Shown here: positions 1 to 25,402 of the stretch, piece by piece
How the letters are laid out: every line of letters begins with the position of its first letter
Numbering within the stretch: the first letter of the stretch is position 1
Assembly (NCBI GenBank): GCA_964611035.1
Contig: CAZSWT010000011.1
Span: 1,006-65,005 of the forward strand
Length of the DNA: 64,000 bases
Reading direction: 5' to 3'
Origin: an uncultured Desulfobacteraceae bacterium
GTDB taxonomy: Bacteria > Desulfobacterota > DSM-4660 > Desulfatiglandales > B25-G16
The notes under the pieces: model-generated
What the model was told of the DNA's origin: nothing
The model's input: only the letters and a program-made list of their open reading frames with translations
Database searches by the model: none
Program-made: the position numbers and the translations under genes

Positions 1-746
1 AAGCAAAATCGTATAGCGAGGATGAAAATCTATTGCACATCAGCCATGAGGCCGGAGTACTCGAAGATCCGGCTTATAGGCCTTCTGAAGATATCTTTTC
101 GATGTCACTCTCGCCTAAAAATGCCCCGGATAGGGAGACAATCATTGATATTTATTTTAAAGGCGGCAACCCGATCAAGGTGGTTAATAAGGATGACGGC
201 ACAGTAAAGGAAAAACCCTTAGACCTCTTTCTTTATTTGAATGAATTGGGTAGTCAAAACGGGATCGGCCGCCTTGATATGGTTGAAAATCGACACCTCG
301 GCATAAAATCAAGAGGTGTGTATGAAACACCTGGAGGCACCATACTATGGAAGGCCCACAGAGACCTTGAAGGCATAGCAATGGATAAGGAGGTAATGCA
401 TCTACGAGACAGTCTCATTCCCAAATTTTCAGAGTTATTATATTATGGATTTTGGTTTTCCCCGGAAGTTGATTTTTTGATGGCCGCCTTTAATCAGAGC
501 CAGCAAGCCATTGACGGCAAGGTCTCCGTCTGCCTCTATAAGGGAAACGTTACCATTATCGGAAGAGATTCACCTTTTTCCCTGTATGATAAAACGCTCT
601 CAAGCATGGAAATCGAAGGCGGATTTAATGCCATAGACACTTCAGGGTTTATTAATATCACCGCCATGAGACTAAAGGCGCATAATCTTATTTTACGAAA
701 AAGAAAGCCCTATCAATGGAGAGACCCCGCATTAGATGACACATAA
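1..746 (+). CDS. argG: Argininosuccinate synthase, C-terminal part (5' end outside window)
   Basis: Translation contains typical ArgG segments ([38 protein letters not shown]). The frame is open to the window start. Confidence 0.9.
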
Positions 747-772
747 TGACAAATGACGGAAAAGACTGAAGC

Positions 773-803
773 CTGCCTACCCCGTTATAATCTGGGTGGG
801 CAG
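773..803. terminator. Stem-loop between convergent argG and the ATCase-like gene, possible bidirectional terminator
   Basis: ctgcctaccc / gggtgggcag form a 10-bp stem (one G-U) with an 11-nt loop. Only a weak T-run follows. Confidence 0.4.
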
Positions 804-867
804 TCCACATTTTATGCCTATTGGGCGTAGAACAATCTAATGGAGACAAACATCCTCATCCACTCCT

Positions 868-1932
868 TTAATACCGTAGTATTTCCTCGTGAACGTTAAA
901 TATATACGCAATCAAAGCAGCCCTTGTCCACATACCGTTTCGCTCCTGCCGCCAGTACATGGCTCTTGGATCAGAATCGATAGCCACATCAATTTCATCT
1001 CTTCGCGGAAAAGGATGCATAATAACTGCGTTTGCTCTTACTTGAGACATGTCAGAGGGTCGAAGCTTAAACCTGGAAATATCAACCCTGTTTGAATCAC
1101 CAGCACTAGTATCGTGCTCATCTTGAATCCTGGTCATATAAATCGCATCGGCTTTAGAAAGCACGTTTTCGAGAGCCTCAGTTTCAACATGATACGGGAT
1201 CTTATATCGTTCCAGGAAACTGCACACATCCTCTTTCATCTGGAAGGGCTTGGGAGAAGCAAAGATGATTTCGATATCTTCAAAGTTTTTCATCAAGTAG
1301 CTTAACGATCGTACTGTTCTGCCCCTTTTAAGATCCCCGCACATCAAAATTGTTTTCCCATCGAGTCCACCCTGGTTTGCGAAAGATCTTTGCAGGGTAT
1401 ATACATCGAGTATCGCCTGGGTGGGATGCTGATCGCTGCCTGAACCACCGTTAATAATTGGGACTGGGCGGTTGGAATAAGTATTCAGCAGCCAGGCAGC
1501 ACGTTCAGCAGGGGCTTCCCCCGTATGCCTCATAATGATTAAATCAGTATACGACGAAAATGTCCGTAAGCTATCATCATAGCTTTCACCCTTAACCTCT
1601 GATGAAACACTGACATCGCGAATCTCGGAGGTTTTAATGCCTAATATGTGACACGCGCTATTAAAAGAGAGGAAAGTCCTGGATGAAGGCTGGGTAAAAT
1701 AGAGCATGGCTCGTTTGTGGCAGAGGATATTTTGCATGAAAAGTGAGCCAGCCTTACTCTCTGATATATGTCGAAGGTGATTTGTAATATCATAAATATT
1801 GTCTATAATATCGCGACTCAACTGCTGCGAGATTATCATGTCAAAAAGGCGCCCATTTTTCTCAAAACACGTAACCTTTTCCTCTGTTGGAAGCTTTTGA
1901 AATTCAGCGAATCTTTCGTCCAAGATATTCAT
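868..1932 (-). CDS. Aspartate/ornithine carbamoyltransferase-family protein, ATCase-like with N-terminal extension
   Basis: Motifs SSRTF (variant of STRTR), IIMRH, HPTQ, GDLKRGRTVRS, YMTRIQ and HPFPR. The start is moved to the ATG at 1932 because the TTG at 1944 overlaps the GGAGGA ribosome-binding site. Confidence 0.75.
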   Translation of the reverse strand: MNILDERFAEFQKLPTEEKVTCFEKNGRLFDMIISQQLSRDIIDNIYDITNHLRHISESKAGSLFMQNILCHKRAMLYFTQPSSRTFLSFNSACHILGIKTSEIRDVSVSSEVKGESYDDSLRTFSSYTDLIIMRHTGEAPAERAAWLLNTYSNRPVPIINGGSGSDQHPTQAILDVYTLQRSFANQGGLDGKTILMCGDLKRGRTVRSLSYLMKNFEDIEIIFASPKPFQMKEDVCSFLERYKIPYHVETEALENVLSKADAIYMTRIQDEHDTSAGDSNRVDISRFKLRPSDMSQVRANAVIMHPFPRRDEIDVAIDSDPRAMYWRQERNGMWTRAALIAYIFNVHEEILRY

Positions 1933-2267
1933 GTAATCCTCCAATTAAAATTTGGGTAATTATATGCCTTTAGAAAGAAAAAGACCAGTGATAGATTTCT
2001 CTGTGGGACAGATCATAGGAATAACATTGACATCTTTTTCCTTGACTCCCAAAGTTATTTACTCCTACACTTACTAATCGAAAGAGGCATTTCATTCAAT
2101 TCAATCAACCGAGTTTACCCTGTTTCCTGAGGTGAGGGAAATTCCACTTAGGCCCTTGTGTCCTCATGTTATTTCTGATCCATGCACTGAAAACAAAATT
2201 ATTGCTGGTCCTGGCCTGGACGTTCTATTGAAAGAACCTCTGTTTACATTGAAAAGGTGATGAAACA

Positions 2268-3608
2268 ATGGCAAGGAAAAATGTCATTATTTTAGGCGCT
2301 GCTGGAAGAGATTTTCACAATTTTAACACCTATTATAGGGACAATGAAGAGTATAATGTGGTTGCCTTTACCGCCACACAAATCCCAAACATTGAGGGCA
2401 GAAAATACCCCGCTGAATTGGCAGGTAATTTATATCCAGATGGTATTCCAATTTTTTCAGAAGAAAAACTGCCACAATTAATTAAAGAGTATAATGTTGA
2501 TGATTGTGTTTTCTCATATACCGACGTTCCTTACACATACGTAATGGGAGTAAGCGCGCTCATTAATGCTGCCGGTGCGAACTTTATATTGTTAGGCACG
2601 AAGGATACTATGATAAAAAGCAGCAAGCCGATGGTTGCAGTGTGTGCTGTGAGAACCGGTTGCGGTAAAAGCCAGACTTCAAGAAAAATTATTGAATTAT
2701 TGATTAAAAAAGGTTTGAAAGTAGTTACGGTGCGTCATCCAATGTCTTATGGTGACTTAGCTGCTCAAAGGGTTCAACGTTTTGCTCACATTGCAGATTT
2801 AAAAAAACATAATTGCACTATTGAAGAAATGGAAGAGTACGAACCAGACCTAATACGAGGAAATGTAATTTATGCCGGTGTTGATTATGAAGCTGTGCTA
2901 AAGGCGGCAGAACAAGATCCTGATGGATGTGACGTTGTGCTCTGGGATGGTGGAAACAATGACTTCCCGTTCTATGTGCCTGATTTAATGATAACTGTTG
3001 TTGACCCGCATCGTCCGGGACATGAATTGTCATATTATCCCAGTGAAGTTACCTTAAAAATTGCTGATGTGGTTATTATCAATAAAATGGATACTGCTGA
3101 TGCCGCTGGCATTCAAACGGTAAGAGAAAGTATCGCAAAGGTTAACCCTGATGCAATTGTCGTTGATGCTACCTCGCCTATTCGGGTTGATAATCCTGAA
3201 GTTATCAAAGGCAAAAAAGTATTAGTCGTTGAGGATGGGCCAACACTGACTCATGGTGGAATGAAGTTTGGTGCAGGTACAATTGCTGCTAATAAATTTG
3301 GTGCAGCCGCATTAGTGGACCCACGACCTTACACGGTTGGTAGGCTTTCTGAAACCTTCAAAATCTATCCTGAAATAGGAACCTTGCTGCCGGCAATGGG
3401 GTATGATCAACAGCAATTAAAGGACCTCGAAACCACGATCAACAATACAGCATGTGAGGCAGTTATTATCGGTACTCCAATAGATTTGAACAGGATTATC
3501 AACATCAAGAGACCGAGCACGAGAGTCTATTATGATTTAGTGGAGATCGGAAGCCCAAACCTTGAAGAAATCTTAAGCGATTTTGTGAAAAGACAAAATC
3601 TTTATTAA
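2268..3608 (+). CDS. COG2403-type P-loop GTPase-like protein (family usually annotated as cyclic 2,3-diphosphoglycerate synthetase), candidate arginine synthetase
   Basis: 446 aa. N-terminus VIILGAAGRDFHNFN...VVAFTATQIP, Walker-A-like RTGCGKSQ, LWDGGNND, and NKMD resembling the G4 motif. AAGGTG RBS upstream. Lies directly upstream of OTC and carbamate kinase. Confidence 0.7.
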   Translation: MARKNVIILGAAGRDFHNFNTYYRDNEEYNVVAFTATQIPNIEGRKYPAELAGNLYPDGIPIFSEEKLPQLIKEYNVDDCVFSYTDVPYTYVMGVSALINAAGANFILLGTKDTMIKSSKPMVAVCAVRTGCGKSQTSRKIIELLIKKGLKVVTVRHPMSYGDLAAQRVQRFAHIADLKKHNCTIEEMEEYEPDLIRGNVIYAGVDYEAVLKAAEQDPDGCDVVLWDGGNNDFPFYVPDLMITVVDPHRPGHELSYYPSEVTLKIADVVIINKMDTADAAGIQTVRESIAKVNPDAIVVDATSPIRVDNPEVIKGKKVLVVEDGPTLTHGGMKFGAGTIAANKFGAAALVDPRPYTVGRLSETFKIYPEIGTLLPAMGYDQQQLKDLETTINNTACEAVIIGTPIDLNRIINIKRPSTRVYYDLVEIGSPNLEEILSDFVKRQNLY

Positions 3609-3614
3609 ATTATC

Positions 3615-3908
3615 GTAACATTTTAGCTCTTTGAAATTACCTGGTGAATGAGCATGGGAATGTCTTTTTTTAACCATGCCCTCACAATGACAAGCCGGTA
3701 GGCCGCTTCAAACCAGTGCACACGGACAAAGTTCCTAGAAGACAATGACGAGTTGCTCGTGCACATGGTTTTGAAGCGGCACGCTGAGGCCCCATGTTAG
3801 AGGGCATGATGTAAAAAAAGACATCCCCATGCTCATGCGTCTCACCAAGGATAACTATGTGGCCTTTAATAAAGGCCAGGGGGAGTTTTCAAAGAGCTAA
3901 AATGTTAC
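3615..3908. mobile_element. MITE-like element, 294-bp near-perfect palindrome with GTAAC...GTTAC termini
   Basis: 22-bp perfect terminal inverted repeats (gtaacattttagctctttgaaa / tttcaaagagctaaaatgttac). Flanked by an identical 8-bp direct repeat aaattatc (3607-3614 and 3909-3916). Inner arms also pair (gagcatggg...ccatgccctc with gagggcatg...cccatgctc). No ORF. Confidence 0.7.
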
Positions 3909-3956
3909 AAATTATCATGTGCTTGACTCTCGATTATATAAAGAAAGGAGCAAAGG

Positions 3957-4958
3957 GTGACGTATCATTTAAAAAATAGAAATTTTTTGAAGTTATTGGA
4001 TTTTACACCTGAAGAAATTCAATTTTTACTGGATCTTTCTGCCGATTTGAAAAAAGCAAAATACGCAGGAAAAGAGCAGCCCACATTAACAGGAAAAAAT
4101 ATAGCCTTAATTTTCGAAAAAGCATCAACCAGGACCAGGTGTGCTTTTGAGGTGGCTTCCTATGACCAGGGAGCAAGGGTAACGTATCTTGATCCGTCAG
4201 GCTCTCAAATTGGCAAGAAAGAATCAATCAAAGATACTGCGAGAGTGCTTGGTAGAATGTATGACGGCATTGGGTATCGTGGTTTTGGGCAAAAAATAGT
4301 CGAGGAGTTGGGAAAATATACAGGTATCCCTGTATGGAATGGCCTCACAAATGAATACCATCCGACTCAGGTTCTTGCAGATTTTTTGACAATGATGGAA
4401 TATTCTGACAAGCCCTTAAGCAAGGTAAAGTTTGCGTATGTGGGTGATGCAAAAAACAATATGGGTAATTCATTATTGATTGGTGCTGCAAAAATGGGAA
4501 TGGATTTTCGCTCTGTTGCGCCTAAAAAGGTTCAGCCCAACAAAGAATTAGTCAAAGAGGCAAAAACGATAGCTAAGGAAACCGGGGCAAAACTATTAGT
4601 AACCCATGTTTTGCGAGAAGGTGTAAAGGATTGTGATTTTCTCTATTCAGATGTCTGGGTTTCAATGGGTGAGCCAGAAAAGGTATGGAAAGAAAGAATA
4701 GAATTATTAAAACCCTATCAGATCAACAATGATACTATGAAAATAACAGGCAATCCTCATGTAAAATTTATGCACTGTTTGCCTTCCCTCCATAATCGTG
4801 AGACAATTATTGGAGAGAATATTTATAAAAAATTCGGCTTAGATGGAATGGAGGTAACCGAAGAAGTGTTTGAATCAGAAGCATCTATCGTTTTTGATGA
4901 AGCTGAAAACAGGGTGCATACTATAAAAGCAGTTATGGTTGCAACTTTAGGGTTTTAG
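3957..4958 (+). CDS. argF: Ornithine carbamoyltransferase
   Basis: STRTR, HPTQ, DVWVSMG and HCLP motifs. 333 aa. GTG start 6 nt after AAGGAG. Its position next to carbamate kinase suggests a catabolic (ArcB-like) role. Confidence 0.92.
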
Positions 4959-5044
4959 TCACTATAAGGCTTATTAAAATTGTGTATATTATGGTAATAT
5001 AAAAAAATATTCCTTTGCCAAATAACTTCTCATGGGGAGTATAA

Positions 5045-6025
5045 TTGACAGAAAAAGAATCTCACATGTCACAGCCTGGCAAACTCATTGTTATCGCATT
5101 GGGGGGAAACGCAATACTAAAAGCTCATCAGATAGGAATTGTGGAAGAGCAATTAGAAAATATTCGCATCACATGGGAGCAACTCCTCCAAATGATAATG
5201 AAGGGACATAAGATTATTATTACTCACGGCAATGGGCCACAGATCGGCAATCTTCTCATACAGCAGGAAGAGGTTCATTCAACAGTCCCAGCGATGCCAA
5301 TGGATGTTTGCGGGGCTATGAGCCAGGGGCAAATCGGATACATGCTTGAACAGGTTTTACACGATTTGCTCCGAGCCAATGGAATAAACAAAGATATCCT
5401 GACAGTAATTACTCAAGTTATGGTGGATAGCGATGAGTCTGCCTTTAAGAATCCTACAAAACCTATAGGTCCATTCTACAATGCGGAAACAAAAGAACGC
5501 TACGAGAAGGAAAAGGCCTACATCATTAAGGAAGTAAAACCAGGGAATCATCGTCCCTTCCGAAGGGTGGTTCCATCTCCGAATCCTTTAAGAATTATAG
5601 AGGCCAGAGCCCTTAAACATTTGGTAGATACTGGCATCATTATCATTGCTGCCGGTGGTGGTGGTATTCCAGTGACAATGGATTCCAAGGGAAATTATCA
5701 CGGGGTGAATGCAGTCATTGATAAAGATTTGGCAGGGGAAAAGCTGGCTGAGGCTGTTATTGCTGATTTACTCATCATTCTTACAGATGTGGAGAAGGTT
5801 TTCCTCAATTTTGGCAAACCGACACAAATTGCCTTAGATATCGTTCAATTAGAAAAAGCAAAGATGTATCAGAAAGAGGGACACTTTTCTCCCGGGAGCA
5901 TGGGCCCCAAGGTTGAGGCCTGTTTACGGTTTTTGGAGTTTGGAGGGCAAGAGGCAATTATCACGTCCCTGGATAAGGCATCCTCTGCGCTTGAGGGCAA
6001 AACAGGTACTCATTTTATCCCCTAA
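5045..6025 (+). CDS. arcC: Carbamate kinase
   Basis: VIALGGNAIL, ITHGNGPQIGN and IIAAGGGGIPV motifs. TTG start after GGGGAG; the alternative ATG is at 5066. Confidence 0.9.
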   Translation: MTEKESHMSQPGKLIVIALGGNAILKAHQIGIVEEQLENIRITWEQLLQMIMKGHKIIITHGNGPQIGNLLIQQEEVHSTVPAMPMDVCGAMSQGQIGYMLEQVLHDLLRANGINKDILTVITQVMVDSDESAFKNPTKPIGPFYNAETKERYEKEKAYIIKEVKPGNHRPFRRVVPSPNPLRIIEARALKHLVDTGIIIIAAGGGGIPVTMDSKGNYHGVNAVIDKDLAGEKLAEAVIADLLIILTDVEKVFLNFGKPTQIALDIVQLEKAKMYQKEGHFSPGSMGPKVEACLRFLEFGGQEAIITSLDKASSALEGKTGTHFIP

Positions 6026-6051
6026 GGCAATCCCCAAAAGGAGAAATAGTA

Positions 6052-6990
6052 ATGTTTCATTTACTCGAGGCCCAGCAATTCACCAAGAGGAATCTTAGAG
6101 AGCTTTTTGATCTCAGCAGTCGTCTCGAGACAATTTTAGCCCAGGGGGGTGACGAATGTTTAAAGGGTAAGATTTTAGCCAGCCTTTATTTCACTCCGAG
6201 CTTGAGGACACGTTTTTCTTTTGAGGCTGCCATGCTCCGTTTAGGGGGGAGCATCCTATCTACAGAAGCAGCCGACATTTTTTCATCAGAGCTCAAAGGT
6301 CGATTCGAAGACACTATCCAGGTAGTATCCGAAATGTCCGATGTCATAGTACTGCGACATTATGAAAGCGGGTTTGCCAAAAGAGCAGCTGCAGTTTCGT
6401 GTGTCCCAATAATCAATGCCGGAGACGGTCCGGCCCAGCATCCAACCCAAGCCTTACTTGACCTCTATACCATCGATCGTCATTTAGGAGGTGTGGACGG
6501 CTGTTCCATCGCTATGGTTGGGGATCTGAGTGGACGCACTGTCCGTTCTCTGTGCTATTTCTTAGCCAAATTCCATGGAATTTCCATATCCTTTATCTCC
6601 CCCGATTTAACAGAGGTCAAAGACGACATAAAGGAGTATCTCCAGCGACATAAAGTTCGGTTCACAGAGATTACGAACCCAAAAGACGGATTAGTAGATC
6701 TGGTCAAAGAGGTTGATGTCGTGCACATCACTCAACTCTCAAAAGAATATTTTACAGATCACCTCGAGGATTACAAGCAAACTATACGCAATTATGCACT
6801 CAGCGCAAAGGCGCTACGCGCTATGAAGAGATCTGCTGTGATTATGCATCCACTTCCGCGTGCCGATGAATTGCCTGATGAATCAGACAGTGATCCCAGG
6901 GCAATTTATTTTCTTCAAAACCGTTATGGGCTCTATGTTCGCATGGCAATACTCTGTACTGTCTTGAGTTGTTATCCAAAATTTCTGTAA
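6052..6990 (+). CDS. Transcarbamylase of uncertain specificity (ATCase-fold)
   Basis: SLRTRFSFE, VLRH, QHPTQ, GDLSGRTVRS and HPLPR are present. The segment aligning to E. coli YMTRVQKER reads HITQLSKEY, so R229 and Q231 are not conserved. AAGGAG RBS. Confidence 0.75.
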   Translation: MFHLLEAQQFTKRNLRELFDLSSRLETILAQGGDECLKGKILASLYFTPSLRTRFSFEAAMLRLGGSILSTEAADIFSSELKGRFEDTIQVVSEMSDVIVLRHYESGFAKRAAAVSCVPIINAGDGPAQHPTQALLDLYTIDRHLGGVDGCSIAMVGDLSGRTVRSLCYFLAKFHGISISFISPDLTEVKDDIKEYLQRHKVRFTEITNPKDGLVDLVKEVDVVHITQLSKEYFTDHLEDYKQTIRNYALSAKALRAMKRSAVIMHPLPRADELPDESDSDPRAIYFLQNRYGLYVRMAILCTVLSCYPKFL

Positions 6991-7211
6991 ACATACCCAT
7001 CTTACATGTAATAGATAACTATTGGATGATGATCGAAATTAGAGAAACGGGGAGAGACAGAAAGGCAATTAGATAAAAGAACTTTACCAAATAGACCCTA
7101 TTATGTTAACCCTACAAAAAGTTATTGCATGAGGGTTAGCAATCCTTATTGCGCGAATGGTAACGCTCATTGAAAGATTAGAAAAAGATTGTATATAAAC
7201 TGGAGGATTAC

Positions 7212-8540
7212 ATGCTTTGTGAAACAAAAAATGATGTGTTAAAATTGGTTAAGGAGAAAAATATCAGCTTTATCCAGTTCTGGTTTACAGATGTGTTGGG
7301 GATATTAAAGAGTTTTGCTGTTACCCCGTCTGAGCTGGAAGAAGGATTAGAAGAGGGAATGGGCTTTGATGGCTCCTCTATCGAAGGCTTCGCCAGGATT
7401 GAGGAGAGTGATATGATTGCCATGCCTGATCCGAGCACCTTTCAGTTCCTCCCCTGGCGACCCCAAGACAGACCAGTAGGCAGCATATTTTGCGATATCC
7501 TTCAGCCAGATGGAAGCCCCTATGAAGGGGATTCCCGATATGTCTTAAAGAGGATGACAAAAAAACTGGCTGAAATGGGATACACAGCTTACATGGGGCC
7601 GGAGCTGGAGTTCTTCTGTTTTGAGAGCCAGGATAATCCCAAGCCTATTGATAAGGGAGGATATTTTGACAATAGACCCTTAGACATGGGCAGTGATTTG
7701 AGAAGAGAAATAATCTTTGCCCTCCAGGATATGGATATCCGTGTAGAATACAGCCACCATGAGGTCGCCCCCAGTCAGCATGAAATTGACCTCAAGTATG
7801 ACGAAGCATTGACCATGGCCGACAAGACCATGTCTTACAGGATAGTAGCAAAAGAGATTGCGAGGAAGATGGGTTATTATGCCACTTTTATGCCCAAACC
7901 ACTCTTCGGCGAAAATGGCAGTGGCATGCATGTGCATCAATCTCTGTTTAGGGGAGACATTAATGCCTTTTATGATCCCCAGGATCAGTATAATCTTTCT
8001 CAATTAGCAAAGTTATACATTGCCGGTATTATAAGACACGCACGAGAGCTTGCAGCAATAACCAACCAGTGGGTAAACTCCTATAAAAGATTGGTCCCCG
8101 GCTATGAGGCGCCTGTCTATATTTCATGGGCCAGGCGCAATCGCTCGACAATGGTTCGCGTCCCCATGTACAAACCAGGAAAGGAGCAGGCCACGAGGAT
8201 CGAGTTCAGGTCTCCTGATCCGGCCTGTAATCCCTATTTGGCATTCGCAGTTATGCTTGCTGCGGGACTAAAGGGGATTGAGGAAAACTACCCGCTCCCG
8301 GAGCCAATAGAGGAGGATATTTATGAGATGGATGAGACAGCCCGGAAAGATGCTGGAATCATCTCTTTGCCAGGAAACCTTTTTGAAGCACTTCAAGAGG
8401 TAGAGAAGAGCGAGCTTGTAAGGGAAACCCTGGGTGATCATATCTTTAATAAGTTTGTGGCCAACAAAAAGATAGAATGGGACAGATACAGGACTCACGT
8501 AAGCCAGTTTGAGATTGAAAAATATCTTCCGATTCTTTAA
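7212..8540 (+). CDS. glnA: Glutamine synthetase, type I
   Basis: 442 aa with typical GlnA blocks (FWFTDVLG, GFDGSSIEGF, MGPELEFF, NGSGMHVHQS, NSYKRLVPGYEAP). Confidence 0.95.
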   Translation: MLCETKNDVLKLVKEKNISFIQFWFTDVLGILKSFAVTPSELEEGLEEGMGFDGSSIEGFARIEESDMIAMPDPSTFQFLPWRPQDRPVGSIFCDILQPDGSPYEGDSRYVLKRMTKKLAEMGYTAYMGPELEFFCFESQDNPKPIDKGGYFDNRPLDMGSDLRREIIFALQDMDIRVEYSHHEVAPSQHEIDLKYDEALTMADKTMSYRIVAKEIARKMGYYATFMPKPLFGENGSGMHVHQSLFRGDINAFYDPQDQYNLSQLAKLYIAGIIRHARELAAITNQWVNSYKRLVPGYEAPVYISWARRNRSTMVRVPMYKPGKEQATRIEFRSPDPACNPYLAFAVMLAAGLKGIEENYPLPEPIEEDIYEMDETARKDAGIISLPGNLFEALQEVEKSELVRETLGDHIFNKFVANKKIEWDRYRTHVSQFEIEKYLPIL

Positions 8541-8552
8541 GAGAGCAACACC

Positions 8553-9788
8553 ATGAAAGATGATACAATAACAGAAATTGGTGATGCCCTGTTTGGTTTT
8601 CAGGCAGCACTCAAAGAAGGTGGCTCAAGCCTTCAGGAATATCTGGAAAAATATTACTATAAGAAGTGGATGGGAGACACCCTCCTTGCTGCCGTATCCA
8701 TACGAGCCACATTCGTGACAGCCATGCACCAATTCCTGGCTGATAAGGGTCTTTGTAATCTTGAAAGGGTACAGCTGAGCCCCCTGACAGATCCCCTGGC
8801 CCATGATGTAGAGCATGTTCCATCAATTTCGTACAAAGGCCTTCAATATGTTATGACCCATAGCATGATCTATTCCAAACTTCTGGCCTGCCACCATCCC
8901 AGAATAAAGGGTATATTCGTTGACTCCCCCAATATCAGGCTTGAGGTTGAGAGCCCTGATAGGATCCAGAGGGGGAAATATATTATTGACTTTAGCCAGA
9001 TGGATATAGAAATGAGGAGAAATCGGGGCATTGATCTTGAGACCTATCTCTCCAAGCCAGACGAGGTAAAAGAGATTCTCAAAGAGGATATGGCCGCTGC
9101 CAAGGATCTCTTTGAACGAATGCTCATCCACAGCATGACAAAGATAGCGGAGAAAAACAGAGAAGAGCTCAAGGAGCTCGGGGTTGCTCTAAAAACCCCA
9201 AAGCAGCCCTTTCCTACATTTGCCTATGACCAATCGAGAAAGAAATACAGTCTCAAAGAATATGAGGTAGGGTTAGGGAAAGAGACATCATCACAGTTCT
9301 TTTGGATTACCGGCATACCAAGAGAAAATTATGATCTTATATACCCTTACCTGAAGCCTGGTGGAAAGATAACAGCAGGTGAGGTAACTTCTGATATGGT
9401 ATATAACTATGACATCTGTGCCAAAAGCATTATCAGGGACACCGGTGAGCAGACTGAAGCACGGGAGCTGCTTTCCGGTGGCATAAGGGAATGGCTCTAT
9501 GAGACGATTGTAGAACGGCTCCTGGATAATAAGGTAATCCCTGTGAAACCTATTATAGTGGAGGGGAATATTGAAAATATCAATCACCTCGGTGGATATG
9601 GGCCATTCCTGTTAGCAGCGAGCATGAAAGATGATACGGGAAGATCAACCTTTCCGGATACCTATGGCGGAGGCATAGGAATAGAGCGGACGCTTTATGC
9701 ACTCTTGCGTGGGCCAAAGGTGAACAAAATTGATGATGTTACCTTCTTTGGCAAAAACCCGGACAGTCACCAGATATATTTATTTTAA
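8553..9788 (+). CDS. Stand-alone class II aminoacyl-tRNA-synthetase-like catalytic domain (Asp/Asn-RS or AsnA-like ligase)
   Basis: Motif 2-like IRLEVES...IIDFSQMDIEM, LLSGGIRE, and motif 3-like GGGIGIERTLYALL. No N-terminal OB anticodon-binding domain. 411 aa. Confidence 0.6.
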   Translation: MKDDTITEIGDALFGFQAALKEGGSSLQEYLEKYYYKKWMGDTLLAAVSIRATFVTAMHQFLADKGLCNLERVQLSPLTDPLAHDVEHVPSISYKGLQYVMTHSMIYSKLLACHHPRIKGIFVDSPNIRLEVESPDRIQRGKYIIDFSQMDIEMRRNRGIDLETYLSKPDEVKEILKEDMAAAKDLFERMLIHSMTKIAEKNREELKELGVALKTPKQPFPTFAYDQSRKKYSLKEYEVGLGKETSSQFFWITGIPRENYDLIYPYLKPGGKITAGEVTSDMVYNYDICAKSIIRDTGEQTEARELLSGGIREWLYETIVERLLDNKVIPVKPIIVEGNIENINHLGGYGPFLLAASMKDDTGRSTFPDTYGGGIGIERTLYALLRGPKVNKIDDVTFFGKNPDSHQIYLF

Positions 9789-10801
9789 TCCTCAATCTCT
9801 ACCTTGAGCTCTCGTGTCATTAAATCCTTAACCGCCTTCCTCGGCTCCTTTCCTCTGTAAATAACATTGTAAACTTCTGTTATGATCGGCATCTCTACGC
9901 CCATCTTTTTTGCTAAATTATAGGCAGACAGTGATGTCTTTATTCCCTCAGCAACCATCTTCATGCCAGAAACAATCTCCTTAGCAGAAATACCTTCAGC
10001 GATCTTTAATCCAACCATTCTGTTTCTGCTCAAATCTCCTGTACAGGTCAAAATGAGATCACCTATACCTGCCAGTCCTGCAAAGGTTAATGGTTGCGCA
10101 CCCATAGAAATGCCGAGTCTTGTTATTTCAGCCAAGCCTCTCGTTAATAACGCTGCTCTTGCATTAAAGCCAAAGCCGAGGCCATCTGATATGCCTGCAG
10201 CGATCGCTATTACATTCTTGAGTGCCCCTCCAAGTTCTACACCTATCACATCTTGTGTTGTATAAACCCTGAAATAGTCAGTAGAAAATAGCTCTTGTAA
10301 ATAAATAGATAGTTCTTTGTTTCTGGAGGCAAGGGTTACAGCTGTTGGGTGTTTATGACAGACCTCCCGAGCAAAGCTTGGACCAGAAAGGCATGCAAAC
10401 GTATCACCCCAATCTCCAGGCAATACAGATGCAACTACTTGAGACATAGTCATAAGGGTTTCATTCTCTATGCCCTTTGTCCCCACTATCAGGGGTGTCG
10501 CAGAAGACAAAAAAGGAGATAACTCAGTGAGGATATCTCTGAAAAAATGAGAAGGGACAACGATACATAAAAAGTCTTTTCCCCTGCTTACCTCTTTGAA
10601 TGATTGAACAGGCCTTATTGCCTTGGAAAGCGTTATTCCTGGTAAAAATGTCTCATTTATTCTTTTTCCCTTAATCTGGCTATATACATCCTCTTCCCTC
10701 ACCCATAAATCCACATTAATGCCTTTAAGGGCCATATGGTTTGCTATAGTAGTACCCCAACTGCCTCCGCCCACGACACCGATTTTGACCATTGTTGCCA
10801 C
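9785..10801 (-). CDS. gpsA: NAD(P)H-dependent glycerol-3-phosphate dehydrogenase
   Basis: KIGVVGGGSWGT Rossmann N-terminus and GALKNVIAIAAGISDGLGFG motif. The start may be the ATG at 10792. Confidence 0.9.
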   Translation of the reverse strand: MATMVKIGVVGGGSWGTTIANHMALKGINVDLWVREEDVYSQIKGKRINETFLPGITLSKAIRPVQSFKEVSRGKDFLCIVVPSHFFRDILTELSPFLSSATPLIVGTKGIENETLMTMSQVVASVLPGDWGDTFACLSGPSFAREVCHKHPTAVTLASRNKELSIYLQELFSTDYFRVYTTQDVIGVELGGALKNVIAIAAGISDGLGFGFNARAALLTRGLAEITRLGISMGAQPLTFAGLAGIGDLILTCTGDLSRNRMVGLKIAEGISAKEIVSGMKMVAEGIKTSLSAYNLAKKMGVEMPIITEVYNVIYRGKEPRKAVKDLMTRELKVEIED

Positions 10802-13677: not shown

Positions 13678-16059
<2,382 letters not shown>

Positions 16060-17184
16060 TTAAACCCTCATCGGCATAATTAAACCCAGAAAACCCTGAT
16101 CTTGTTCTCCGGTAATCAGGCATGGGCTTGTTTGATCTTTAATATCTAAAAAGATTATATTGCTGTCCATCGTCTGAAGGGCATCTATAAAATATTTAGG
16201 ATTAAAACCTATCTCTATTGGTTCGCCGTCATATTTAATTTCTATTTTTTCCTCCACATCACCTAAATCAGGGTTCACAGACACCATCTCTAAATAATCT
16301 GTTCCCATGGTTATTTTTGCTCCTTGATACTGATCACCCCCTATTATCATCATTCTTCTCATGGATTCTAATAAAAGGTTTCTATTCACAGTAATAATGT
16401 TTTTTTTATCTTCTTTTTTTGGGAGGATAACGTCTTTGTAATTAGGAAATTTTGTGTCCAACAACCTTATTACAATTAAAGCCTCTTTTTTTTTGCCTAC
16501 CAGATTGTTTTGTTTTAACCCGAAAAGGATGTTTCCATTTTCTAAAGCAAGTTTATTTAACTCCAGTAAACCCTTTTTAGGAATCATAACACCTTGTTTA
16601 ATATCTATTTCCTGAAGGTTGGGTATTTTTTTATCAATTAATGAGAGTCTGTGACCGTCTGTAGCAACCATTCTTAAAAAATCCTCTTTGTCTTTATTTA
16701 CTGTTTCCATAAACACACCTGATAATTTAAAGGCAGTATCCTCTATAGTTATCGAGTAAATGGTTTTATTAATCATCTCAGTTAATATTTTACTGTTTAT
16801 TTCTATCATTATTATCCCTTCCGGCTCTGTTAAAATAGGGAATTCGTCAGCAGGAAGACAAGAAAGATTATAATGGGCTTTATTATCAGAAATATAAATC
16901 CAGTTATTTTCTTTTTCTAATATGTAAATGTTCTTACTGTTAGTTTCTCTTGTTATATCGAGAAGTTTTTTACCAGAGATGGTGATACTACCAGGCTTAA
17001 CAATTTCAGCCGGGTAACTATTTTGAAATCCGATCTCTAAATCAGTAGCTGATATTTCAATCTTATCTTGTTTTGTTGTTAAAAGTATTGTAGACAGTAT
17101 AGGCATATGACTTCTTTTTTCCAGGATTCCCTGAACACGAGACACGCCTTTTAAAAGAACATCTCTATTAATTTTGATTTCCAT
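16060..17184 (-). CDS. dnaN: DNA polymerase III beta sliding clamp
   Basis: 374 aa. Typical three-domain clamp pattern ending in LIMPMRV. Immediately upstream of gyrB. Confidence 0.93.
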   Translation of the reverse strand: MEIKINRDVLLKGVSRVQGILEKRSHMPILSTILLTTKQDKIEISATDLEIGFQNSYPAEIVKPGSITISGKKLLDITRETNSKNIYILEKENNWIYISDNKAHYNLSCLPADEFPILTEPEGIIMIEINSKILTEMINKTIYSITIEDTAFKLSGVFMETVNKDKEDFLRMVATDGHRLSLIDKKIPNLQEIDIKQGVMIPKKGLLELNKLALENGNILFGLKQNNLVGKKKEALIVIRLLDTKFPNYKDVILPKKEDKKNIITVNRNLLLESMRRMMIIGGDQYQGAKITMGTDYLEMVSVNPDLGDVEEKIEIKYDGEPIEIGFNPKYFIDALQTMDSNIIFLDIKDQTSPCLITGEQDQGFLGLIMPMRV

Positions 17185-17409
17185 TTTTGCTCCAAAATTT
17201 TAAAGTTATATTATTGTTTTTACTTTATATTACTAACAATAATAATAAAGAAGCACTATATTGTTTAGAAGCCATTTAATGTGTTTATTTAACTATATTT
17301 TTTACTATATATATTTTTTATAACTCGGGTTTTTATAACCAGTATGTGATTAAAAATATACACTCAACATTAAAGTCTCTAACCTACATACTTAATAACC
17401 GTCTATTTT

Positions 17410-17435
17410 CTACCCCGCGTATAAGCGCGGGGTAG
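17410..17435. terminator. GC-rich stem-loop just downstream of the acyl-CoA dehydrogenase gene
   Basis: ctaccccgcg / cgcggggtag form a 10-bp perfect stem with a 6-nt loop. There is no clear U-tail on the minus strand, so the terminator role is uncertain. Confidence 0.35.
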
Positions 17436-17447
17436 TTGCAACAGGGT

Positions 17448-18611
17448 TTATCTATTTGCCTTCCTTATGCCGAGTTGATCTTGTGCAATGATGAATTTAC
17501 AGATATTAGTTGATCCTTCTACCATACCATAAGGAGGAGTGTCTCTATAATAACGGGCCACCGGATACTCTGTAGAGTAACCGTAGGCCCCGAGAATACT
17601 CATAGCGTATCGAGAGGACTTGTAGGCAACTTCAGCGGCCAGATACTTGGCTTGAGCCACCTCCATATTATTTCCCAACATTCCCTGATCCTTTTGCCAT
17701 GCTGCCCTGTAGCAGGATAGTCTTGCAGCCTCGATCTCTGAGACCATCTGGGCGACCATGTCTTGATTCATTTGAAACTTCCCCACTGCCTGACCAAACT
17801 GCTCCCTCTCCATAGCATATTTAGTAACGGACTCTAAACAGGCTTGTGCCACACCAACTCCTCCGGCGGCAGCGGAGAGTCGGGAGTTAGCAAGGGAGCC
17901 GAAAATTATCTTAACCCCATCCCCTGGTTTACCTATAATGTTTTCTTTAGGGACATTGGTGTTTTCCATGATAATTTCACCGGTGGGTGTTGCATGTGTA
18001 CCTGTTTTATCTAAATCTGTGGTTGTGATTCCATTAAAGTTTTTAGGCTCAACAACAAAGGCGGACAGACCTTTCGACTTAGCCTCCCTGTCTGTGTACG
18101 CATAAACAATGACCGCATCCGCAACACTGGCATTAGAGATCCATGTCTTGTAGCCGTTTAAAAGCCAGTGATCTCCTTTATCCTCGGCAGTAGATTTCAT
18201 AGACATAACATCAGATCCGGCGTTAGGCTCTGTCATCGCGAATGCCCCTACATACTCGGCACTCACCAACTTAGGAATATATTTCCTTTTTAACTCCTCA
18301 CTGCCATAATGGTGGATGGTGAAGGCATTACCTGTTGTCTGCATATTAATCTGAACCCGCAACGCACTACAACCACGGGCAATTTCCTCAGTTAGTATTA
18401 TAGCTGCCAGCCAACCCATATTGTTTCCCCCGTATTCCTCAGAGATAACCGTGCCAAAAAAACCCAACTCACCCATCGGTTTAATAGCCTCTTCGTATGG
18501 GAAATGGTGGTTTTCTTCCCATTCATCTGCAAACGGAGAAATTTTCTCGTCTACAAAATCACGAACCATATCCTTAAGCATTTGCAGTTCTTCAGATAAT
18601 TCAAAATTCAT
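17448..18611 (-). CDS. Acyl-CoA dehydrogenase
   Basis: 387 aa. FAMTEPNAGSD, WISNA and YEGTSNI-like (VEGSTNI) signatures. Confidence 0.9.
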   Translation of the reverse strand: MNFELSEELQMLKDMVRDFVDEKISPFADEWEENHHFPYEEAIKPMGELGFFGTVISEEYGGNNMGWLAAIILTEEIARGCSALRVQINMQTTGNAFTIHHYGSEELKRKYIPKLVSAEYVGAFAMTEPNAGSDVMSMKSTAEDKGDHWLLNGYKTWISNASVADAVIVYAYTDREAKSKGLSAFVVEPKNFNGITTTDLDKTGTHATPTGEIIMENTNVPKENIIGKPGDGVKIIFGSLANSRLSAAAGGVGVAQACLESVTKYAMEREQFGQAVGKFQMNQDMVAQMVSEIEAARLSCYRAAWQKDQGMLGNNMEVAQAKYLAAEVAYKSSRYAMSILGAYGYSTEYPVARYYRDTPPYGMVEGSTNICKFIIAQDQLGIRKANR

Positions 18612-18886
18612 ATTTTCTTACCTCCTTACTTTAGCGTTAGATTGGTAAATATATCTATCGATTTTTTGAGATAGATTTAATACGTAAGGCCTGACTCTAA
18701 TGTCATCCCGGTGAAAACTAAATCTATATTCAAGACATTTTTCAACTAATACCATAAGAGCTTTAGCGTGGCCTAAAAATATAAATTAATAAATCTTTAT
18801 TCATATTGAAGTATAGAACATTAGGCTATCATTTACAATATATTTGTTACCTTTAAGCGTGACAATTGTATGGAATTATTAAGGGA

Positions 18887-20272
18887 TTATTTACCAATAC
18901 AAAATTTACTAAAAATGTTGTCCAATATCTCTTCTGTCGTTTTATTTCCCGTTATTTCATCTAAAGCATTTTTCGCCCACAAAAGATCCGCTGCTACTAT
19001 TTCCAATGGAAAACCACCTATTAAATTTTTAGATGCCTTTTCTAAAAACATAGAGGCGTTAGTTAATGTAGTTTTATGTCTTATATTAGGAACAATAGGC
19101 GCTGGATAAACATTTATATCCCTATCAACAACCTTATTAAAGATTACTTCATTTAGTGTTTCAAATCCTTCCCCCGTGAGGGCCGAAACAGCAACCCTGG
19201 GAAGGTGTTGAAAGACAACATCGATTTTTTTGTCACTTAGTTTCGCGGGAAGATCAATTTTGTTTATAATAACTATAGTGGCCCTTTTATCGACTTTTCG
19301 CAAAATATTTAAGTCGTATTGATTTAAAGGTCTGTTTCGGTCGATCACCAAAAGAGTTAGATCAGCCAGGCCAAGTTGAGTGTTTGTTAAATTTACACCC
19401 TTTCTTTCAACCTCTCCTCTAACCTTTCGCATGCCGGCTGTATCTACCAGCTTTAAAGGAAGCCCTTCGATAGTAACAGTATATTCGAGAATATCACGCG
19501 TTGTTCCTGGTATTGGAGTAACGATTGCCCTGTCCTCCTGTAAAAACCTATTTAAAATGCTCGATTTACCAACGTTAACCTTACCGACTATGACTACGGC
19601 GGTACCCTCATGCCATATCTTTCTTTGCGTATAGGCTGCTACGAGCTTTTTAATGGGCTTTATAACCTTTTCGTTTAGACGATCTGCTGTGTGTGATTTT
19701 GTTACTTCAGAAGATTCTTCATCAGGAAAATCTATTAAACACTCTATGTCTGCAAGGATTTCGATGAGCACCTGCCTAATTTCATTAATTTTTGCTTTTA
19801 ATCCTCCAATAAGCTGGCCGGTTGCCAACCTCATTGACATATCACCTTTCGCATTTATTAAGTCTATAATCGCTTCGGCCTGGGTTAAATCGATCCTCCC
19901 GTTAAGGAAGGCCCTGAGGGTGAATTCACCAGGTTTGGCCAGTCTGGCGCCCGCTTGAAGAATTATCTGGAGTATATATGACAGGATTGTGTAGCCACTG
20001 TGAGAATTAATTTCGACCACGTCTTCTCGGGTATAAGAGAAAGGGGCGTGCATTACGGAAAGCAGAACTTCGTCGACAGGAAGGTTTGATTTCGGGTCGA
20101 TAATATGGCCTAGGTAAAGACGAAAACTATCAAATGAGTTAATGGGGGACTTTGATCGAAAAATTTTCCGTGCGATGTTTTCAGCATTATACCCACTAAT
20201 CCTAATTATTCCTATGCCGCCTACCCCTATTGGAGTAGCTATAGCAGCAATGGTCTCCTCTTTATAATCCAT
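18887..20272 (-). CDS. mnmE: tRNA modification GTPase MnmE
   Basis: 461 aa. TIAAIATP N-terminus, G-domain GKVNVGKSS...DTAG...NKID, and the C-terminal CIGK motif. Confidence 0.95.
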   Translation of the reverse strand: MDYKEETIAAIATPIGVGGIGIIRISGYNAENIARKIFRSKSPINSFDSFRLYLGHIIDPKSNLPVDEVLLSVMHAPFSYTREDVVEINSHSGYTILSYILQIILQAGARLAKPGEFTLRAFLNGRIDLTQAEAIIDLINAKGDMSMRLATGQLIGGLKAKINEIRQVLIEILADIECLIDFPDEESSEVTKSHTADRLNEKVIKPIKKLVAAYTQRKIWHEGTAVVIVGKVNVGKSSILNRFLQEDRAIVTPIPGTTRDILEYTVTIEGLPLKLVDTAGMRKVRGEVERKGVNLTNTQLGLADLTLLVIDRNRPLNQYDLNILRKVDKRATIVIINKIDLPAKLSDKKIDVVFQHLPRVAVSALTGEGFETLNEVIFNKVVDRDINVYPAPIVPNIRHKTTLTNASMFLEKASKNLIGGFPLEIVAADLLWAKNALDEITGNKTTEEILDNIFSKFCIGK

Positions 20273-20293
20273 GATAAAAGAAGCAACTCGGGA

Positions 20294-20944
20294 CTAATCA
20301 TTTTGGTTTTTATCGATCTTCTTTTTGTTTGGAATAATAAACACACTCTTAAAGAAACCTTCACCATTACTTTTTGTTTGGAGCTGGTAATCTCCTTTAA
20401 GGGCGAGATGAACTATTCTTCTGTCGTGTGGGCTTATCGGATCTATCGTGACAGTTTTTCTTGTTTTTTTCGCCTTTTCGCCCATTCTAAATGCCAGTCT
20501 CTCTAAGAATTCCTCTCTTCTTTGCCTGTAATTCTCTGCATCAACAATTACCCTTACCTTTTTTTCAGATGCCTTATTTACTGCCTTATTGATAATAAAC
20601 TCCAATGCCTCTAAGGTCTTACCCTTAGGCCCTATTAGGATCCCAGGGTTATTCCCTTCTATATTTAAAACGATATCATCAGCTTTTTTCCTTGCAGATA
20701 TCTTTGTATCTGGGGATATTGATGAAATTATTTTTGTGAGTATTTCTTGGGCAAGGGCTATGCTGTCATCCCTCTTTGGTGTTGCCCTGATTTTAGCTTT
20801 CTTATTGCCTGTTAAACCAAAAATTCCAACAGATCTGGTTTCCAATACCTCTATATCAAGCTCCTCCTCTCTTAAATTAAAATGTTTACAGGCCTTTTCA
20901 ATAGCCTCTTGCGTTGTTTTAGCTTCTATTTCTGTAGACGACAT
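20294..20944 (-). CDS. jag: RNA-binding protein Jag/KhpB (Jag_N, KH, R3H)
   Basis: 216 aa. IGPKGKTLEALEFI (KH) and HDRRIVHLAL (R3H). Conserved position between yidC and mnmE. Confidence 0.85.
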   Translation of the reverse strand: MSSTEIEAKTTQEAIEKACKHFNLREEELDIEVLETRSVGIFGLTGNKKAKIRATPKRDDSIALAQEILTKIISSISPDTKISARKKADDIVLNIEGNNPGILIGPKGKTLEALEFIINKAVNKASEKKVRVIVDAENYRQRREEFLERLAFRMGEKAKKTRKTVTIDPISPHDRRIVHLALKGDYQLQTKSNGEGFFKSVFIIPNKKKIDKNQND

Positions 20945-20961
20945 AAAGTTTCCTCCTAAAA

Positions 20962-22620
20962 TTAGCCCACTTGTTTATTAATCCTATATTGTTGAGCTAT
21001 TGATAGTACATTGTTTACTAACCAATAAAGCACTAAACCAGAGGGAAAATTAATAAACAAGAACGTAAATACGATTGGCAGAAGCATCATCATCTTAGCT
21101 TGGGCGGGGTCTCCTGTAGTTGGTGTCATTTTTTGCTGGAGAAACATGGATGCTCCCATTATCAGGGTTAACACAGGAATACCGTAGGGGGGAGCCATAA
21201 AAGGAATTTGGAAGGGGAAGGAGAAAAGCCTGTCAGGTGCAGAGAGATCTTTAATCCATAGAGCAAAAGGAGCATGTCGTAACTCTATCGAGTTCGGTAA
21301 GACTCGAAAAAGGGCGAAAAAAACAGGAATCTGGACTATCATAGGCAAACAACCTCCCATGGGATTAATTTTATAGGTTTTATAAAGTCCCATGAGCTGT
21401 TTCTGCATTTCTTGCTTATTTCCTTTGTATTTCTCCCGTATCTTGGCCATCATAGGTTGAAGTTTTCTCATTTCTTTCATAGATTGATAACTTTTATGAG
21501 TGAGAGGCCAAAACAGTATCTTGATGATAATAGTGAGCAATATAATTGAAAGACCATAATTAGAGAGGTATTTATTGAAAAAGCGTAGAGTAACCAAGAG
21601 GGGTTTGGCAATAATATCAAACCAGCCAAAATTGACAGCCTTTTCGAGTTTTTTATTCAGGGCCTTTAGTATATAGAGATCCCTGGGTCCAAAATAGAGG
21701 ATAAAGTTTTCCGTTGTATTCTGGTCCTGTCTGAGATTGAGCGAAGGGGTTATGTACGATATTTTTATCTCGTCATCAGGGAGAATGCTGCTTTTTACAG
21801 TTGATTTTCTGCTCTTTTCATCGACGATAGCGGCCAAAAAATACGGTTCTTCACGAGCAACCCAGGATATTTGGCCAAGAAATTGCTTATCTTTTAGTTT
21901 TCCAACTTTAACCTCTTTTAATTTGTTTTCGAGAAGCAGGGCCATACCCTCAAAGGCGCCATAGCCCTTTTTTGTCTTTGTAGGAAGATGAAACAAATTT
22001 AATGAAAGGGTATCATCAATTAGGTATTCAGATTTATTATTTACATGTACTGACAGGTCAATTTTATAATTGTCGGCATAAAAAACAAACCTTGTTTGTA
22101 TCTCTATTCCTTCAGGTGATACACGCTCATAAATTAATTCCTTTGGTCGGTCACCCGGCCTGATTGTAATTTCTTTGCGGTTTACCTTATAAGTAGCCCA
22201 CTTGATATTGGGTATATTTTTCCCAGAGAAGCCGAGATTAAATCCGTACCCGCTCTTGTTTTTAACATGAATTAATTCTTTTAAGGGAGAGTCTTTCTCA
22301 AGCGTTGATCGATATTTTTTTAGTTTAAAACTCTTAATGAGAGGACCAGACCCAGAAAAGACAGCTATATAAAGATCTGTTTCGACTGTGATATCTCTGG
22401 TATCTCTTCCCGTCTCTAACATAAGATCTCGCTTTGGGCCTGTTGGAATCGGTCTACCTTCTAAACCGGGTTGAGATTGATCTTTTTGTTGGCTCAGCTC
22501 TTTTTTAGGTATTGACTGTTTCTCAGTTGATTTATCCGTTGGTTTCGGACCAAACAAAACGGACCATAAAAGGAAGACAAGGAATGACAGCCCTAAAGCC
22601 AACAACGTTTTTTTATCCAT
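20962..22620 (-). CDS. yidC: Membrane protein insertase YidC
   Basis: 552 aa. N-terminal TM, large periplasmic domain, and a conserved C-terminal core (INPMGGCLPMIVQIPVFFAL). Confidence 0.95.
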   Translation of the reverse strand: MDKKTLLALGLSFLVFLLWSVLFGPKPTDKSTEKQSIPKKELSQQKDQSQPGLEGRPIPTGPKRDLMLETGRDTRDITVETDLYIAVFSGSGPLIKSFKLKKYRSTLEKDSPLKELIHVKNKSGYGFNLGFSGKNIPNIKWATYKVNRKEITIRPGDRPKELIYERVSPEGIEIQTRFVFYADNYKIDLSVHVNNKSEYLIDDTLSLNLFHLPTKTKKGYGAFEGMALLLENKLKEVKVGKLKDKQFLGQISWVAREEPYFLAAIVDEKSRKSTVKSSILPDDEIKISYITPSLNLRQDQNTTENFILYFGPRDLYILKALNKKLEKAVNFGWFDIIAKPLLVTLRFFNKYLSNYGLSIILLTIIIKILFWPLTHKSYQSMKEMRKLQPMMAKIREKYKGNKQEMQKQLMGLYKTYKINPMGGCLPMIVQIPVFFALFRVLPNSIELRHAPFALWIKDLSAPDRLFSFPFQIPFMAPPYGIPVLTLIMGASMFLQQKMTPTTGDPAQAKMMMLLPIVFTFLFINFPSGLVLYWLVNNVLSIAQQYRINKQVG

Positions 22621-22718
22621 AAATAAATTCCCAATATAAAATAAAGTGAATTATAATAGCTAATGGTAAAATTATCAACCTGTGCTGCTTGATTGACAAA
22701 TAAAACGCTAAATAATGT

Positions 22719-22918
22719 GTAACTACTCAGGTTCAAAGTTCCTGGGTTCACCGTTCAGGGTTAACCAGACGAAAAAGAGGTTCGATTCCGTAACGAGAGC
22801 CGTGTTCATCCGTTTCTTGTGAAACTCCATGGTGTTCTGCACAGGAGTCCAGAGTGAGCCCTATGCAGCAATAAATACGCCTAACCGTGAACCTTGAACC
22901 TTACAACCTGAGTTACAA
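22719..22918. mobile_element. MITE-like element with GTAAC...GTTAC termini inside the yidD-yidC spacer
   Basis: Imperfect TIRs (gtaactactcaggttcaaag... / ...ccttacaacctgagttac). Flanked by an identical 8-bp direct repeat aataatgt (22711-22718 and 22919-22926). No ORF. Confidence 0.65.

Positions 22919-24367: not shown

Positions 24368-25402
<1,035 letters not shown>

Follow-up and report, generated by a model that had tools for sequence, protein, structure and literature searches.

A 64-kb stretch of DNA (the window) from an uncultured Desulfobacterota-type sediment bacterium carries three co-directional genes, for a P-loop protein of 446 amino acids (aa), an ornithine carbamoyltransferase (OTC) and a carbamate kinase (CK), which, with a probability that we put at roughly three in four, encode the "arginine synthetase pathway" of Thermococcus kodakarensis. 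The reaction of TK2200 (ArcE), and the two-ATP pathway that it forms with ArcB and ArcC, were experimentally defined in that archaeon (Michimori et al., PNAS 2024, PMC11032458). A preliminary description of the window had pointed to an arginine synthetase from T. kodakarensis, which the published work bears out. Over 438-440 aa, the 446-aa protein proved 62-63% identical to the Thermococcales enzymes, to which it is closely orthologous. The open reading frames (ORFs) of the three genes match exactly the positions that the description had given:

2268-3608, plus strand: arcE, putative arginine synthetase (ATP-forming arginine deiminase), 446 aa, named by orthology to Thermococcales proteins
3957-4958, plus strand: arcB/argF, ornithine carbamoyltransferase, 333 aa, GTG start with AAGGAG ahead of it
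5045-6025, plus strand: arcC, carbamate kinase, 326 aa, matching TIGR00746 and Pfam AA_kinase

In the proposed pathway, ArcE would convert arginine, ADP and Pi to citrulline, NH3 and ATP, and OTC would work in the phosphorolytic direction of its reversible reaction (citrulline + Pi <-> ornithine + carbamoyl phosphate), after which CK would use carbamoyl phosphate and ADP to form ATP and carbamate, the latter decaying to CO2 and NH3. The net yield would be two ATP per arginine, versus one for the arginine deiminase (ADI) pathway. Part of the carbamoyl phosphate could pass to the adjacent enzymes resembling aspartate carbamoyltransferase (ATCase), and GlnA may be a sink for the NH3. As for the chemistry of ArcE, for which PMC11032458 proposes no mechanism, analogy with P-loop enzymes that activate a carbonyl oxygen would point to attack of Pi on arginine with loss of NH3 to give a phospho-isourea intermediate at the ureido/guanidino carbon, from which the phosphoryl group would pass to ADP. 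The ATP-conserving, deiminase-independent route from arginine to ornithine that the preliminary description had suggested thus appears sound, since the orthology of ArcE, the OTC and CK assignments and the conserved linkage of the genes all point to it.

Window ArcE was 62% identical to the protein of Pyrococcus furiosus DSM 3638 (P0363) over 440 aa, 63% identical to that of a Thermococcus sp. (P0410) over 438 aa and 63% identical to the proteins of T. peptonophilus and T. eurythermalis, these named Thermococcales proteins having been recovered via searches started from archaeal representatives. The Thermococcus proteins were less similar to homologues from Thermoproteota or Desulfurococcales (47-55% identity) than to the window protein; window ArcE is closer to them than the Thermoproteota and Desulfurococcales proteins are, and would therefore belong to the same subclade as the characterised enzyme. 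At the level of sequence, its full-length orthology to the Thermococcales enzymes is clear. TK2200 should be about as close to window ArcE as its congeners are, because the congeners in the Thermococcus cluster (a Thermococcus/Palaeococcus cluster at 90%, with 201 members) are 86-98% identical among themselves, and arcE homologues occur throughout the Thermococcales, P. furiosus included (PMC11032458). Thermococcales ArcE was also 61-64% identical to the ArcE of the window, of its close relatives and of a Bacteroidales-type representative (P0363, P0422 and P0532 were compared), and this pattern of identity between Thermococcales and bacteria suggests inter-domain transfer together with very strong sequence constraint. 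The family is large: a database search returned more than 8000 homologues, the best 93% identical and many from Bacteroidota at 76-80% identity, and an exhaustive search of representatives gave 3675 clusters at 50% identity.

Individual residues were conserved as well. In an alignment of 90 diverse homologues, window ArcE had the consensus residue at 93 of the 95 columns conserved at 90% or more, and the two departures were V122M and G259S. Its motifs comprise an N-terminal Rossmann-like GAAGRDFH segment, the P-loop TGCGKS (aa 130-135), WDGGNND (aa 226-232), NKMD (aa 272-275) and THGG (aa 328-331), and the Walker-type and NKMD motifs read from the letters in the preliminary description are indeed in the translation, as AVRTGCGKSQ (aa 127-136) and INKMD (aa 271-275). 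An AlphaFold (AF2) model of the protein had a pLDDT (predicted local distance difference test score) of 95.3. When this model was compared with the PDB using Foldseek, the best matches were cyclic 2,3-diphosphoglycerate synthetase (cDPGS; 8oru/8ork, with an E-value of 4.6e-18 for 8oru and 15-17% identity), followed by LpxK (4ehy, E = 9e-9). LpxK 4EHY is the structure that Michimori et al. superimposed on TK2200p, and they reported only low sequence similarity to cDPGS homologues (PMC11032458).

The structural match raises the question of whether the 446-aa protein might be a cDPGS, or a GTPase of the CobW/HypB type, as the databases name its homologues, and have no link to arginine. We consider this extremely improbable. 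The database names, the cDPGS at the head of the structural matches, an NKxD-like motif and a weak Pfam cobW match (24 bits over 63 residues) speak for it. However, the phmmer match to a cDPGS (PDB 9sxb) reached only 27 bits and was confined to aa 221-376, and identity in the structural alignment was 15-17%, versus 62-63% to Thermococcales ArcE, and cDPGS identity was rejected. Cyclic 2,3-diphosphoglycerate itself is known only from hyperthermophilic methanogens (PMC10690619). A GTPase of the CobW/HypB/UreG (G3E) type was likewise rejected, as the Pfam cobW match (24.3 bits) covered only positions 114-179 of a 180-position profile and the NCBIfam CobW model gave 18.6 bits against a cut-off of 332. 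In addition, the characterised member of the family prefers ADP, with GDP giving 8% of that activity (PMC11032458), and the linkage of ArcE genes to those for CK, OTC, argS, pyrB and carAB belongs to arginine and carbamoyl-phosphate metabolism. ArcE homologues had been annotated as putative GTPases (PMC11032458), and the complaint in the preliminary description that the family is still mis-annotated was justified: RefSeq and JGI continue to use "cyclic 2,3-diphosphoglycerate synthase" or "predicted GTPase", and neither Pfam (2025 copy) nor NCBIfam (June 2026) holds an ArcE family model.

The identity of the other two enzymes, the last two of the ADI pathway, is straightforward, as both pass curated NCBIfam cut-offs, in keeping with how the preliminary description had named them. 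The 3957-4958 product scored 565 bits against NF003286 (cut-off 515) and 429 bits against TIGR00658 (cut-off 281), matched Pfam OTCace_N and OTCace, and has the motifs STRTR, HPTQ and HCLP that had been read from its translation; a gene of identical length (333 aa) was called in relatives, and catabolic and anabolic OTCs are indistinguishable by sequence here. The 5045-6025 product scored 409 bits against the NCBIfam equivalog TIGR00746 (cut-off 358), with a Pfam AA_kinase match besides.

What is missing beside these two enzymes, as the preliminary description had observed, is an arginine deiminase. A Pseudomonas aeruginosa ArcA probe, validated against PDB 1rxx (963 bits, full length), gave no tblastn or phmmer match at E <= 10 in the 64-kb window, and each of the ten 380-470-aa ORFs that the window has beyond 12 kb fell in another Pfam family. 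The other long window ORFs examined were assigned elsewhere, except for a 194-aa ORF at 26442-27026 that had no family match. No arginine/ornithine antiporter gene (arcD) was seen in the 64 kb. The same probe detected ADI genes in two loci, which served as positive controls. Both loci are from metagenome-assembled genomes of spirochaetes, and in them a classical ADI gene lies no more than 8 kb from ArcE (L031, 5038-6525, minus strand, and L042, 1305-2546, plus strand, from Rectinemataceae and Treponemataceae). They are exceptions to the reported complementarity of ArcA and ArcE.

The spacing of the three genes is uneven, with a gap of 349 nt between arcE and arcB, and this was found to be due to a mobile hairpin insertion:

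3607-3916, no strand assigned: MITE-like (miniature inverted-repeat transposable element-like) insertion directly after the arcE stop codon, with an inverted repeat and a direct duplication

The core of the insertion (3615-3908) is a near-perfect inverted repeat of 294 nt, with arms that are 100% and 96% complementary and an RNA fold of -145.5 kcal/mol (z = -12.9), and it is flanked by an 8-bp direct duplication of the target site, AAATTATC, at 3607-3614 and 3909-3916. It is present as a single copy in the window and was absent from all 126 loci fetched. One relative (L085) has an empty site with an arcE-arcB spacer of about 60 nt, which looks like the spacing of an operon, and four others (L081, L089, L090 and L110) have a different insert, also flanked by inverted repeats, at the same position. 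The MITE-like insertion is not part of the arginine pathway. From the empty site and its short spacer it follows that the ancestral arrangement was a compact arcE-arcB-arcC operon, which in turn supports a functional link between the three genes.

That link was also apparent from the wider neighborhood of ArcE, for which the following genes flanking the triad have to be introduced:

33-746, plus strand: 3' part of argG, argininosuccinate synthase (Pfam Arginosuc_syn_C, 235 bits; NF001770, 241 bits on the C-terminal 237 aa)
868-1944, minus strand: second ATCase-like paralogue, 358 aa, divergent from arcE
6052-6990, plus strand: ATCase-like carbamoyltransferase paralogue, 312 aa, starting 27 nt after arcC
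7212-8540, plus strand: glnA, type I glutamine synthetase (TIGR00653, 548 bits, cut-off 429)
8553-9788, plus strand: class II aminoacyl-tRNA-synthetase-like protein resembling archaeal-type asparagine synthetase A (AsnA-like), 411 aa

The presence of argG and glnA nearby had been noted in the preliminary description, and the order argG, ATCase-like gene, arcE, arcB, arcC, ATCase-like gene, glnA and AsnA-like gene proved to be common to eight related metagenome contigs (L081, L082, L085, L090, L092, L093, L110 and L097). The argG gene is complete (421 aa) in relatives, and glnA and the 868-1944 gene occupy the same positions there. In one of the eight contigs (L097, 695-1834, plus strand), a gene resembling L-arginine:glycine amidinotransferase (291 bits to PDB 1jdx) immediately precedes the arcE-arcB-arcC set. 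The 8553-9788 product scored 134 bits against NF005054, far below its cut-off of 309, and 35 bits against Pfam tRNA-synt_2; a relative (L082, 60-1295) has a second gene of the tRNA-synt_2 family, also of 411 aa, upstream of argG.

Synteny of ArcE homologues with OTC and CK, to which the preliminary description had pointed as a check on its reading, was thus found in close relatives, and it extended beyond them. A scan of GTDB species representatives with a trimmed alignment gave at least 599 species with an ArcE homologue, the best of the matches listed being 79% identical to window ArcE, and neighbors were counted in the best 80, a sample rich in Bacteroidales. Of these 80 species, 15 had CK no more than 8 kb from ArcE (immediately adjacent in 13), six had OTC at that range and five had both. 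Even on the assumption of two CK genes per Mb, the finding of 15 in 0.95 Mb of flanking DNA has a Poisson P < 4e-9. The arrangement at the locus is therefore not due to chance, as it recurs in eight related contigs and CK is enriched near ArcE across phyla. Other recurrent neighbors were bona fide pyrB-pyrI (13 of the 80 loci), the arginyl-tRNA synthetase gene argS, often divergent (nine), and carAB (three), with carA-carB between ArcE and pyrB-pyrI in three loci. The suggestion that the ATCase-family neighbors in Bacteroidales are N-succinylornithine carbamoyltransferases was considered and rejected, since they score as bona fide PyrB (369-387 bits to TIGR00670). Taken with CK and OTC, these neighbors tie ArcE to arginine and carbamoyl-phosphate metabolism generally, beyond the catabolic triad.

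In which direction the enzymes work is the next issue. We infer that the enzymes act chiefly to degrade arginine, a direction favored by the presence of CK, by argG, which offers a canonical biosynthetic route, and by the equilibrium. Reverse operation would amount to a cheap, ammonia-dependent synthesis of arginine, in which CK would make carbamoyl phosphate from NH3/CO2 and ATP, OTC would make citrulline, and ArcE would make arginine from citrulline, NH3 and ATP. The case for it is that the ArcE reaction goes both ways in vitro and that, in vivo, the enzyme allows arginine to be made from citrulline, that a biosynthetic role has been suggested for it in bacteria without argininosuccinate synthase and lyase (PMC11032458), that the window cluster adjoins nitrogen-assimilation genes (argG, glnA and the AsnA-like ligase), and that ArcE in Bacteroidales occurs with carAB, pyrBI and argS. 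Nevertheless, we regard it as decidedly unlikely here. The argG gene next door represents the canonical route, and by the reasoning of Michimori et al. ArcE would then serve to convert arginine to citrulline; the equilibrium lies on the side of arginine breakdown, and ArcE has a Ks for NH3 in the mM range (PMC11032458); and the CK of T. kodakarensis supplies no carbamoyl phosphate (PMC13260591).

A different emphasis within the degradative direction is that the main role of ArcE and OTC may be anabolic supply, i.e., of carbamoyl phosphate for the ATCase-like enzymes and pyrimidines, and of ornithine, with CK only clearing the surplus. This is possible, if tentative. In T. kodakarensis, it is the ArcE and ArcB steps that furnish the carbamoyl phosphate used in making pyrimidines and in maturing hydrogenase, and arcC is dispensable (PMC13260591, 2026), and in the window one ATCase-family gene begins 27 nt after arcC and another lies upstream. 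In addition, a bona fide pyrB(-pyrI) directly follows ArcE in eight of the 13 GTDB loci that have pyrB near ArcE. However, the downstream ATCase-like protein is without the canonical aspartate-binding residues and may not be a pyrimidine enzyme, and such a supply role involves the same direction and the same enzymes as arginine breakdown by the arginine synthetase pathway and does not exclude ATP generation.

The two ATCase-like proteins are themselves atypical. The 6052-6990 product scored 254 bits against TIGR00670, just over the cut-off of 237, versus 369-387 for true PyrB near ArcE in other phyla, and its best PDB match was Arabidopsis PyrB (6ypo, 295 bits). Its carbamoyl-phosphate loop reads PSLRTR instead of PSTRTR, and its aspartate site TQLSKEYF instead of TRIQRERF (R229Q, Q231S and R234Y in E. 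coli numbering), so that it no longer has the canonical Arg and Gln that bind aspartate. Relatives that are 71-98% identical keep the substitutions, which were not found by motif search in relatives at 48-70% identity. The 868-1944 product keeps the TRIQ motif of the aspartate site and has HPFPR, but STRTR is replaced by SSRTF and the N-terminus is extended by about 30 aa; its score against TIGR00670 (225 bits) falls below the cut-off, and no pyrI was found near the gene.

The 6052-6990 gene is probably co-transcribed with arcC, and its product could either draw carbamoyl phosphate off the pathway or pass carbamoyl phosphate on to the kinase; more speculatively, the protein might share the kinase as a carbamoyltransferase for a new substrate, or be a pseudo-enzyme. 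Relatives of it (48-98% identity) lie directly after CK in 23 of the 24 metagenome loci with enough upstream DNA, and the modules that partner the CK and ATCase-like pair vary among loci L085-L119: ArcE and OTC; an MmgE/PrpD-like gene with a TRAP (tripartite ATP-independent periplasmic) transporter (DctPQM); or AllH- and FdrA-like genes. One might therefore see the core of the neighborhood in CK and the 6052-6990 gene, the latter a catabolic carbamoyltransferase for a ureido compound, with the whole a multi-substrate "carbamoyl phosphate to ATP" island to which ArcE and OTC are one feeder module among several, an arrangement that we consider unlikely.

Several points weigh against the assignment of an arginine synthetase pathway to this locus. 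The comparison of ArcE was made with Thermococcus congeners of TK2200 and with P. furiosus, and activity data for any bacterial ArcE were not found in the searchable literature; the bacterial enzyme would presumably share the activity of the archaeal one. The ArcE reaction is near equilibrium (dG0' about -6.8 kJ/mol; PMC11032458), and therefore its direction depends on conditions. The view of ADI, arcD and carbamoyl-phosphate synthetase takes in 64 kb of the genome. In this strain, the 302-nt insertion with its very stable hairpin may uncouple arcE from the transcription of arcB-arcC. Finally, OTC and CK were together near ArcE in only the five of 80 species mentioned above, and in Bacteroidales the neighbors of ArcE are instead pyrBI, carAB or argS, so the family is not always catabolic. 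Loci from Bacteroidales and related metagenome-assembled genomes in which ArcE is not beside OTC or CK include L003-L005, L020, L025, L027, L028, L030, L033 and L061, among others, and their arrangement suggests a role in carbamoyl-phosphate or arginine homeostasis, unlike an ATP-yielding fermentation.

The remainder of the window consists of origin-proximal housekeeping genes, dnaN, gyrB, gyrA, yidC, jag, mnmE, mreBC and a V-type ATPase operon among others. An origin-type set (gyrB, dnaN, mnmE, jag and yidC) lies at 13678-24368, and the GC skew changes sign near 20-24 kb; no dnaA-sized ORF adjoins dnaN, which is followed by an acyl-CoA dehydrogenase gene instead. The V-type ATPase operon is complete (about 30.9-39.4 kb), and a 6S RNA (Rfam RF00013, 86.5 bits) is at 40351-40534 on the plus strand, upstream of the gene for RNase Y. 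A scan of 700-10000 for promoters and terminators gave sites no more numerous than in shuffles, and an Rfam scan of 1-10000 gave no match at E <= 0.1.

Set beside the T. kodakarensis system, the window locus has an ArcE of the same family, with its conserved residues and the same relatives by fold (LpxK and cDPGS), the same OTC and CK partners, and no arcA nearby. The differences are as follows. The host is a mesophilic-type bacterium (Desulfobacterota-like), whereas T. kodakarensis is a hyperthermophilic archaeon; the window has its three genes in a cluster, while those of T. kodakarensis are dispersed as TK2200, TK0871 and TK2158 (PMC11032458); argG is present, unlike in T. kodakarensis, an arginine auxotroph; the conserved neighborhood holds two atypical ATCase paralogues, glnA and an AsnA-like gene; and a mobile hairpin element follows arcE. 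With the classical ADI pathway, arcABC(D), the locus has in common the OTC and CK steps, a net reaction that takes arginine to ornithine, CO2 and 2 NH3, and the logic of an operon. There, however, ArcA is hydrolytic and has a guanidino-group-modifying fold, whereas the first enzyme of the window is a P-loop protein that, by analogy, would act reversibly and conserve the energy of deimination as a second ATP, and the arcD antiporter of the classical cluster has no counterpart in the window. The cDPGS of Methanothermus fervidus (PDB 8ork/8oru and 9sxb), although the best structural match, with a distant P-loop architecture and the use of ATP/ADP in common, differs in substrate and reaction as well as in its low identity and partial alignment to window ArcE, and is confined to hyperthermophilic methanogens.

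To a specialist, such a pathway at this locus will not come as a surprise. Homologues of arcE are widespread in bacteria, Thermodesulfobacteriota and Bacteroidota included, with a distribution that complements that of arcA, and arcE is next to arcB and/or arcC in some genomes (PMC11032458); the concept of the pathway, its bacterial spread, the GTPase mis-annotation and the linkage to arcB and arcC had thus all been published by 2024. What the window adds is a clear case, probably from Desulfobacterota, of a bacterium that has the three genes of the two-ATP arginine synthetase pathway side by side. The value of the locus lies mainly in annotation and in its suitability for a first biochemical study of an ArcE from bacteria. 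With no ArcE model in Pfam or NCBIfam, the names "GTPase" or "cyclic 2,3-DPG synthase" are attached to thousands of ArcE genes, and the capacity for arginine fermentation and its ATP yield are consequently under-called in models of anaerobes and metagenomes.

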